A DNA stretch of 64,000 nt from Parachlamydiaceae bacterium (lineage in GTDB: Bacteria > Chlamydiota > Chlamydiia > Chlamydiales > Parachlamydiaceae): contig JACDES010000001.1 of the NCBI GenBank assembly GCA_013816265.1, forward strand, positions 25,636 to 89,635, given 5' to 3'. Of the stretch, positions 63,796 through 63,982 are shown in pieces. Position 1 is the stretch's first letter. Each line of letters opens with the position of its first letter. Made by a program: the position numbers and the translations under genes. The notes under the pieces are model-generated. The model was not told the DNA's origin. It did no database searches and saw only the letters and a list, made by a program, of their open reading frames with translations.

Positions 63796-63982
63796 TTTTG
63801 TCCATTTCTGTCCATTTCTGTCCATTATTGTCCATTATTGTCCATTATTGTCCATTATTGTCCATAAAGTCCATAAAATTTATGGACGATATGGACAAAA
63901 ATGGACAAAAATGGACGAAATGGACGAAATGGACGAAATGGACGAAATGGACGAAATTTTTGTCCTTTGTCCTTTTTGTCCT
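63796..63982. repeat. Phased iteron palindrome: 8 x GTCCAT then 8 x ATGGAC (inverted), plus 3 x TGTCCT
   Basis: GTCCAT starts at 63800, 63810, 63820, 63830, 63840, 63850, 63860 and 63869. ATGGAC starts at 63882, 63891, 63901, 63911, 63920, 63929, 63938 and 63947. TGTCCT starts at 63961, 63968 and 63977. The sub-repeat units are tgtccatttc x2, tgtccattat x4, aaaaatggac x2 and gaaatggac x4. Confidence 0.95.

Follow-up and report, generated by a model that had tools for sequence, protein, structure and literature searches.

The right-hand end of the window (the whole 64,000-nt stretch of DNA analysed here, ca. 33 % GC and part of a 90,347-bp contig) contains a dense block of short repeats, which raises the question of what kind of element is situated there. 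The initial annotation described eight GTCCAT sites followed by eight ATGGAC sites, and proposed a cooperative protein-binding array such as a partition centromere, an iteron origin or a large autoregulatory operator. The array of 16 sites is indeed present, with 16/16 perfect hexamers between positions 63800 and 63952. On the + strand, GTCCAT starts at 63800, 63810, 63820, 63830, 63840, 63850, 63860 and 63869 (spacing of 10 bp six times, then 9 bp), and ATGGAC starts at 63882, 63891, 63901, 63911, 63920, 63929, 63938 and 63947 (spacings of 9, 10, 10, 9, 9, 9 and 9 bp). The number of hexamers expected in 161 bp is 0.048 (Poisson P(≥16) = 3.5e-35), and the remaining 63.8 kb of the window hold 19 unclustered copies, counting both strands. 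Tandem Repeats Finder and a repeat finder recovered both arms, together with an inverted repeat of 38 nt and 89 % complementarity.

The left arm (63796–63874, + strand) reads tgtccatttc twice, tgtccattat four times, gtccataaa and gtccat. The centre of the palindrome has the sequence GTCCATaaaatttATGGAC; in the predicted fold the loop is formed by the middle 3 nt (63877–63879) of the aaaattt at 63875–63881, the flanking A/T being paired. The right arm (63882–63956, + strand; GTCCAT on the − strand) contains the spacers gat, aaaa (twice) and gaa (four times) and a trailing gaaa. Right after the stem there is a T5 run (63957–63961), followed up to 63982 by the three degenerate half-like units reported previously, with GTCCT at 63962, 63969 and 63978 (+ strand); GGACGAAATTTTTGTCC with the T-rich tail was flagged as terminator-like. 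All the sub-repeats named in the initial annotation occur in the array, and its suggestion of stepwise amplification by unit duplication is supported by the order of the spacers from the centre outwards, which is ttt, ttt, aata (four times) and agaa (twice) in the left arm, and ttt, gat, aaaa (twice) and gaa (four times) in the right arm; each arm has thus duplicated its own units after common descent. Conversely, the proposal of one site per helical turn, with all the sites of an arm on one DNA face, is only partly correct. The left arm has a 10-bp period and the right arm mostly one of 9 bp; at 10.5 bp per turn, the angular drift reaches ca. 150 degrees over the eight sites of the left arm and ca. 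290 degrees in the right arm, so the sites are not all on one face.

That the array could be an assembly artefact at a repeat is a possibility that we consider negligible. An independent Logan assembly (contig L001, SRR11719869) is identical to the window from 56368 to 63848 and ends inside the left arm, at a point where four identical 10-mers exceed a short k-mer; this break, and the position of the array near the window edge, are what could speak for an artefact. Nevertheless, up to that point the two assemblies are identical at every base, so that the array cannot be ascribed to a single assembler. Additionally, the window runs 44 nt beyond the palindrome, and similar arrays occur in many independent assemblies, including a contig of 1.34 Mb. 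The sequence to the right of the palindrome differs from the reverse complement of the left flank, which also argues against a hairpin telomere or a snap-back artefact.

The initial annotation had set aside a coding repeat and a CRISPR array, and our analyses agree. The listed ORFs across the array are repeats of 46–50 aa. On the − strand, two frames stay open between the edge of the window and the array, which they enter, and the third (frame B) has a stop at 63982–63984, 26 nt from the array. The peptides of the two open frames, which run through the right arm, were absent from a word-indexed protein library and from 1.84 billion representative sequences, a set that can miss non-representatives. 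The 6-nt core and the 3–4-nt spacers differ from those of CRISPR arrays, in which repeats of 24–48 bp alternate with unique spacers about as long.

Together, the arms make up an imperfect palindrome of 157 bp. Folding of 63796–63956 as RNA predicts one hairpin with a minimum free energy of −100.5 kcal/mol, as compared to −26.5 ± 3.4 for shuffled sequences, whereas folding of 63780–63990 as DNA gave −63.8 kcal/mol (z = −13.3), with none of 200 shuffles as good. Between the arms there is predicted pairing of all the hexamer bases (96/96) and of 38 of the 50 spacer bases (76 %). As modeled, the array is a single hairpin of ca. 75 bp, either as RNA or as single-stranded DNA, and since the spacers too are largely complementary, the unit of organization is the hairpin and not two independent binding arrays. 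The motifs AUGGA and CAGGAUG, the latter from a related core described below, resemble CsrA sites; a role as a CsrA sponge was considered, but the GGA arm is paired within the predicted hairpin.

The only gene visible next to the array codes for a P-loop protein of the zeta-toxin family (62570–63724, − strand; 384 aa with a hydrophobic N-terminal segment; Pfam PF06414, 34.3 bits vs. a cut-off of 22.3), which lies outside the element. The array is 72 nt away from its ATG (63724), the distance given by the initial annotation, across a 71-bp AT-rich spacer (63725–63795) with weak sigma-70-like hexamers on the − strand that are consensus matches only. Such matches number 9, compared with 6.0 ± 2.0 in shuffled sequences, and the outer units of the left arm contain TGGACA, resembling −35 boxes on the − strand. 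Searches for the protein found 29 homologs, the named ones being from Rhabdochlamydiaceae, Protochlamydia and other Chlamydiae; three of these loci (L124, L125 and L126) showed no upstream array, cluster of GTCCAT, periodic repeat or shared synteny. An autoregulatory operator such as that of omega-epsilon-zeta systems would be conserved upstream of the genes that it regulates, with a gene for a small repressor in the operon; there is no ORF in the 72-nt gap. An operator dedicated to the autoregulation of the zeta-toxin-family gene is therefore rejected, because the homologous loci examined lack the array.

The visible 6 kb to the left of the array contain the zeta-toxin-family gene and genes for coiled-coil and DUF4116 proteins, and a domain scan of their ORFs did not identify any gene for ParA, ParR, Rep or a small DNA-binding protein. 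Two proteins from this part of the window (56591–58102 and 58911–60947) consist almost wholly of DUF4116 repeats, with 8–9 copies each. Further left, most of the window is occupied by a large trans-AT polyketide synthase cluster (576–45752), on a chlamydia-like contig of 33 % GC. Its giant − strand ORFs (4415–14437, 16080–19628, 19701–27524 and 27538–38514) contain KS, KR, DH, MT and ACP domains, RhiE-like linkers and an in-line flavin monooxygenase, with no AT domains; the cluster also includes an HMG-CoA synthase/ECH beta-branching cassette, two P450s and two BAHD-type transferases. An intergenic 42-bp tandem repeat (2.3 copies, 96 % identical) is found at 46506–46602.

Sequences related to the array were found in other genomes. 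An exact 26-mer from the left arm, GTCCATTATTGTCCATTATTGTCCAT, matches one genome among the species representatives listed, a Parachlamydiaceae metagenome-assembled genome (MAG) that contains at least two related arrays, as ATGGAC/GTCCAT palindromes with other spacers, situated 448 kb apart on the 1.34-Mb contig. When one of them is reverse-complemented, the two arrays align unit for unit, with indels of whole units and an inverted central loop, and for this reason we consider them dispersed copies of one family. A comparison of loci L002 and L003 did not reveal any mobilizing enzyme or target-site duplication, the homology ending with the array. Locus L002 belongs to the MAG, where a group II intron and an inverted pair of the Acido-Lenti-1 RNA motif (1885–3907 and 6923–7113) scored above the gathering score, and its array is upstream of a putative Phd/PIN-type toxin–antitoxin pair, an assignment made by visual inspection of the sequence.

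A degenerate scan of metagenome contigs identified intergenic palindromic arrays with the same core in 12 of the 120 matches listed, on contigs of 40–72 % GC; most of the other matches listed, from at least 120 loci, were coding repeats on one strand. In viral contigs they were 3 of the 120 matches listed, as compared to 0/354 for three control hexamers with matching base composition, searched in viral contigs only (Fisher P = 0.016 within the viral contigs). The same-core arrays from metagenomes and viral contigs are all predicted to fold strongly. The taxonomic placement of most array-bearing contigs relies on a few marker matches: one carries a sigma factor above the cut-off of the Rhodopirellula/Verrucomicrobium family, and another a dnaK gene 81–86 % identical to its closest relatives, of which the named ones are Parachlamydiaceae and Protochlamydia. 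Overall, related copies occur at several unrelated intergenic sites in Parachlamydiaceae, in other PVC-type contigs and in phage-like contigs.

Variation among these relatives was concentrated in the spacers and in the number of units. The core is kept in contigs of 32–72 % GC, and locus L119, with very unequal arms of 18 and 6 units, combines 24/24 perfect hexamers with at least eight spacer variants. Most relatives have a 9-bp period; the inter-arm gap ranges from 1 to 47 nt, and the spacer complementarity between arms is 68–76 %. Pairing in a hairpin does not by itself explain an invariant core next to varying spacers. Thirteen of the 15 other same-core arrays begin with ATGGAC (binomial P = 0.007), and the copy in the window, with GTCCAT first, shows the minority order. 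There is a single copy in the 64 kb of the window, whereas locus L123 has two arrays and L107 three copies of a composite relative. These last are repeats of ca. 250 bp (7390–7620, 8490–8750 and 9640–9880) that include, in this order, five TATGGGnnn, four ATGGACatt and five CCCATAnnn units, followed by others, and that separate three consecutive genes, one of them for a small terminase subunit; integron attC-like cassettes were considered in L107 and discarded, since no R′/R″ core sites were seen.

The relatives are found between convergent genes, between genes in tandem and, rarely, between divergent ones and, in the tandem regions, they are close to the upstream stop codon; the distance to a stop is 0 nt in L003, 4 in L123, −3 in L030, 14 in L070 and 17 in L115, and L026 has stops 0 to ca. 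5 nt away on both sides. Many copies adjoin dnaK, rpsT, lgt or other housekeeping genes. Phage-like contigs carry ATGGAC arrays at module borders, adjoining terminase genes or after primase/helicase genes. In one of these (L176, 1193–1305), the ribosome binding site and the ATG of a gpA-type large terminase gene are in the loop of an ATGGAC/GTCCAT array, whose left arm forms a short ORF (MDPMDPMDDMDGGEKT) upstream, the stop of which overlaps the terminase ATG.

The region 3′ of dnaK, which we compared in nine Parachlamydiaceae-like loci, illustrates this position best. The gene is followed by a canonical stem-plus-U terminator in L604/L608 and L605, and by a plain 11-bp hairpin lacking a U-run in L602. 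The equivalent place is occupied in L026 by an ATGGAC array, in L603 by a hairpin of AGGAT units followed by a U-run, in L607 by a single ATGGAC…GTCCAT hairpin and then a CAGGAT array, in L606 by a CACAGAG/CTCTGTG array and in L601 by a weak GACAAAAGA array. After dnaK, tandem-unit palindromes therefore stand where relatives carry ordinary terminators.

These flanks also uncovered arrays with other cores. Those of the CACAGAG family pair an arm of three CACAGAG units with one of three CTCTGTG units, and are dispersed in five sites from three of the Parachlamydiaceae-like loci (L605 3727–3792; L606 3403–3472, 9800–9975 and 11983–12090; L607 2180–2243), in both arm orders. In viral contigs (loci L732–L844; 43–70 % GC) they make up 10 of the 120 matches listed, the arm order is the same in 11 of 11 arrays from these 10 loci, and within phage operons they are situated 11–21 nt past the upstream stop in the five loci (5/5) with a readable distance. 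Conversely, none of the 117 viral-contig matches listed for CAGGAT was a palindromic array, although this core is present in Parachlamydiaceae loci. The CACAGAG-type hairpin at 9800–9975 in L606 contains nested inner hairpins and is located between grpE and dnaK, in an hrcA-grpE-dnaK operon; its sequence and position suggest a site for intra-operon processing or attenuation.

If the core is read in double-stranded DNA, the array would be a series of sites, (TGTCCATTAT)n, on both arms of which many copies of one sequence-specific protein would load cooperatively, as in an operator, a centromere or an iteron origin. The hexamer is conserved in 16 of 16 units while the spacers vary, and it is kept across contigs of very different GC content, the left arm has a 10-bp spacing, and the array lies upstream of a start codon with −35-like boxes in its outer units. 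Moreover, there are one-armed GTCCAT arrays that cannot form any hairpin (L602 15526–15559, L057, L112, L071 and L066), one of which, that of L602, is directly upstream of a TTGACT box, and, in phage-like contigs, the arrays are neighbors of terminase genes, a place in which DNA-binding sites would be expected. The idea of a protein array keeps some weight, owing to the invariance of the core, to the one-armed arrays close to promoters and to the terminase association, but we regard it as unlikely. Its weak points are the lack of par, rep or small DNA-binding genes in the visible flank, the zeta-toxin-family homologs examined that lack an array, the copies beside unrelated genes on a chromosome-size contig, the prevailing 9-bp period and the drift of the right arm, the wide range of inter-arm gaps, which leaves no fixed dimer geometry, and a spacer complementarity that protein binding does not need. 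Each of its specific versions, centromere, iteron or gene-specific operator, fails in at least one defining feature. The partition centromere proposed by the initial annotation is not supported: centromeres occupy one or few loci per plasmid, directly beside parA/parM and an operon for a centromere-binding protein, whereas arrays of the same family are dispersed beside unrelated genes, with two of them 448 kb apart on one contig, and the visible left 6 kb contain no Par protein gene. Iteron origins have direct repeats of ca. 17–22 bp in a single orientation, close to a rep gene, together with DnaA boxes and an AT-rich region for unwinding; this reading fared no better, with 9–10-bp units in two opposed arms, no rep gene visible in the left flank and, in the GC skew analysis that had been suggested to look for an origin, no switch at the array end beyond the effect of gene orientation. 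BLAST searches with the array against 72,556 plasmids and against phages did not return any match, perhaps owing to masking of the query by the low-complexity filter. DnaA boxes were also considered, because TTGTCCATT matches 7/9 positions of a high-GC DnaA box, TTGTCCACA, and L066 mixes GTCCAC with GTCCAT, but the dispersal, the arm architecture and mismatches at key positions speak against them. The array of L066 (2880–3160, the same as in L100) comprises ca. 25 one-stranded TGTCCAYA units with a 10-bp period, in which GTCCAC and GTCCAT interchange, and has no inverted partner.

If neither core nor hairpin is for anything, the array would be a selfish or mutational palindromic minisatellite, that is, a short hairpin that expanded by slippage and is tolerated outside promoters and genes. 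Unit numbers and spacer types that differ between arms and between copies, very unequal arms such as those of L119 and the absence of the array from the homologous zeta-toxin-family loci examined would all be explained. Likewise, convergent, tandem and divergent placements roughly match the frequency of such regions, and the proximity to stop codons could merely reflect avoidance of promoters. However, neutral drift should strike core and spacer alike, yet the cores are invariant; a few cores recur across very different genomes, while the control hexamers yielded none; the arm order is biased, 13 to 2 for ATGGAC and, for CACAGAG in viral contigs, 11 to 0 (arrays from 10 loci); and arrays repeatedly occupy the terminator position after dnaK. 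We thus find an element devoid of function improbable. Far less probable is a phage-derived site for packaging (pac/cos) or recombination, recognized by a small terminase or an integrase: it would suit the arrays located beside terminase genes or at the ends of primase/helicase genes (L176, L210, L228, L107, L122, L109 and L182), but the visible 64 kb contain no phage genes, many copies are beside dnaK, rpsT, lgt and other housekeeping genes, and the phage copies are found at borders between modules, which are in any case an expected place for hairpins and terminators.

The reading that we favor, with moderate confidence, is that the array is a REP-like dispersed extragenic hairpin element at a transcription-unit boundary that has grown by slippage. 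In this reading, the arms of the family consist of tandem 9–10-bp units around an invariant core, here GTCCAT/ATGGAC, and its members usually mark the ends of transcription units. A hairpin at the border of two transcription units, formed in RNA or in extruded DNA, would stop or insulate transcription and might protect transcript 3′ ends, as REP/BIME elements do; each arm would lengthen on its own, through slipped-strand duplication of its units, and the invariant core would be the presumed contact for a factor that spreads or binds the family. The copy in the window separates the zeta-toxin-family gene, 72 nt away, from a right-hand neighbor beyond the window. The T5 run after the stem on the + strand and the − strand stop 26 nt to the right would fit the usual layout of gene end, array and next gene start. 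Several features of the locus are at odds with a boundary hairpin: its sole visible neighbor is met at its 5′ side, on the strand of this gene an A-rich sequence, instead of a U-run, comes after the stem, and the window has the minority arm order and one copy in 64 kb. Likewise, the array of L002 is flanked by the starts of two divergent genes, a setting with no obvious need for a terminator.

A further idea, which we put forward only tentatively and consider rather unlikely, is that the cores ATGGAC, CAGGAT and CACAGAG are sites for a sequence-specific factor common to chlamydiae, PVC-type bacteria and their phages. Such a factor could be a new enzyme for propagation, comparable to RAYT, or else a protein that reads hairpins built from repeats and so ends, processes or packages nucleic acid; were it to exist, the arrays would constitute cis-elements of a new class, with a code of their own, beyond long terminators. 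For the REP-like boundary hairpin, the consequences would be that environmental chlamydiae, related bacteria and phages mark gene borders with a repeat unseen by annotation or by Rfam, which would bear on the transcription-unit boundaries of organisms that are hard to study genetically and would raise the question of what reads a fixed word of 6–7 nt. In practical terms, such arrays break short-read assemblies, as seen in the Logan contig, and create spurious small ORFs, and they are a cheap sequence marker to follow this group of elements across metagenomes. For the zeta-toxin-family gene, the suggestion of a dedicated giant operator or of a partitioned plasmid finds no support.

The comparison with known systems places the array closest to extragenic palindromes and terminators. 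Partition centromeres and operators of RHH proteins, such as R1 parC, TP228 parH and the omega heptads of pSM19035, consist of many short direct and inverted repeats of 7–11 bp near a promoter, and the omega operator of pSM19035 controls a zeta-toxin operon. Unlike them, the array has an unrelated core and no gene for a centromere-binding protein, ParA/ParM, omega or epsilon in the visible flank, its family can occur more than once on a replicon, and its arms are complementary to each other as the two sides of a hairpin. Foldback elements and MITEs share with the array long inverted arms of short tandem units, a small size, a non-coding and dispersed nature and an invertible centre, but the array shows no target-site duplication or distinct terminal inverted repeat in the comparison of L002 with L003, and foldback elements are eukaryotic; we know of no partner transposase for the family. 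The STRR heptamer repeats of cyanobacteria are also short tandem units with a fixed core, scattered in intergenic regions of one bacterial group, although with other cores and hosts, and paired inverted arms are not their defining feature. The likeness to intrinsic terminators is in position, with a hairpin from a few to ca. 20 nt past the stop codon and in the same place after dnaK, and, for L603, L607 and the window array on its + strand, in the T/U run that follows. Their stems are of 5–14 bp, whereas that of the window array has ca. 75 bp and is made of repeats with a conserved core; moreover, many copies do not have a U-run, and the window array is on the 5′ side of its visible neighbor.

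The nearest relatives in kind are the REP/BIME elements of Proteobacteria (GTAG- and CGTC-tagged superfamilies), whose hairpins are credited with termination and mRNA stabilization and whose copies can reiterate (PMC3733652). Like them, the arrays are extragenic, imperfect palindromes, with at least two copies in the Parachlamydiaceae MAG, in either orientation and often just downstream of genes; that of the window is itself an extragenic imperfect palindrome with the capacity to form a stem-loop. A REP is, however, a single 20–40-bp stem-loop with a terminal GTAG/CGTC tag and linked to a RAYT, as opposed to arms of tandem 9–10-bp units with a 6-nt core and a total of 50–250 bp. There is no consistent tag, since the array does not contain GTAG and CGTC appears only where the spacer starts with G (31 % of the units), and no RAYT (Y1 transposase) matched among the flanking ORFs scanned. 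The survey of REPs in PMC3733652 does not list a GTCCAT core. Rfam did not match the array at the gathering threshold, giving only sub-threshold hits to generic models of miRNA-precursor hairpins (best, 53 vs. 144 bits), and gave no match for the arrays of the relatives, including those of the CACAGAG family. The view of the initial annotation that no described element has this core agrees with these searches and with those of the literature by core sequence and topic. Arms built from a conserved 6–7-nt word are apparently undescribed; the kind of element to which they belong, that of extragenic palindromic repeats and hairpins in the position of a terminator, is already known.
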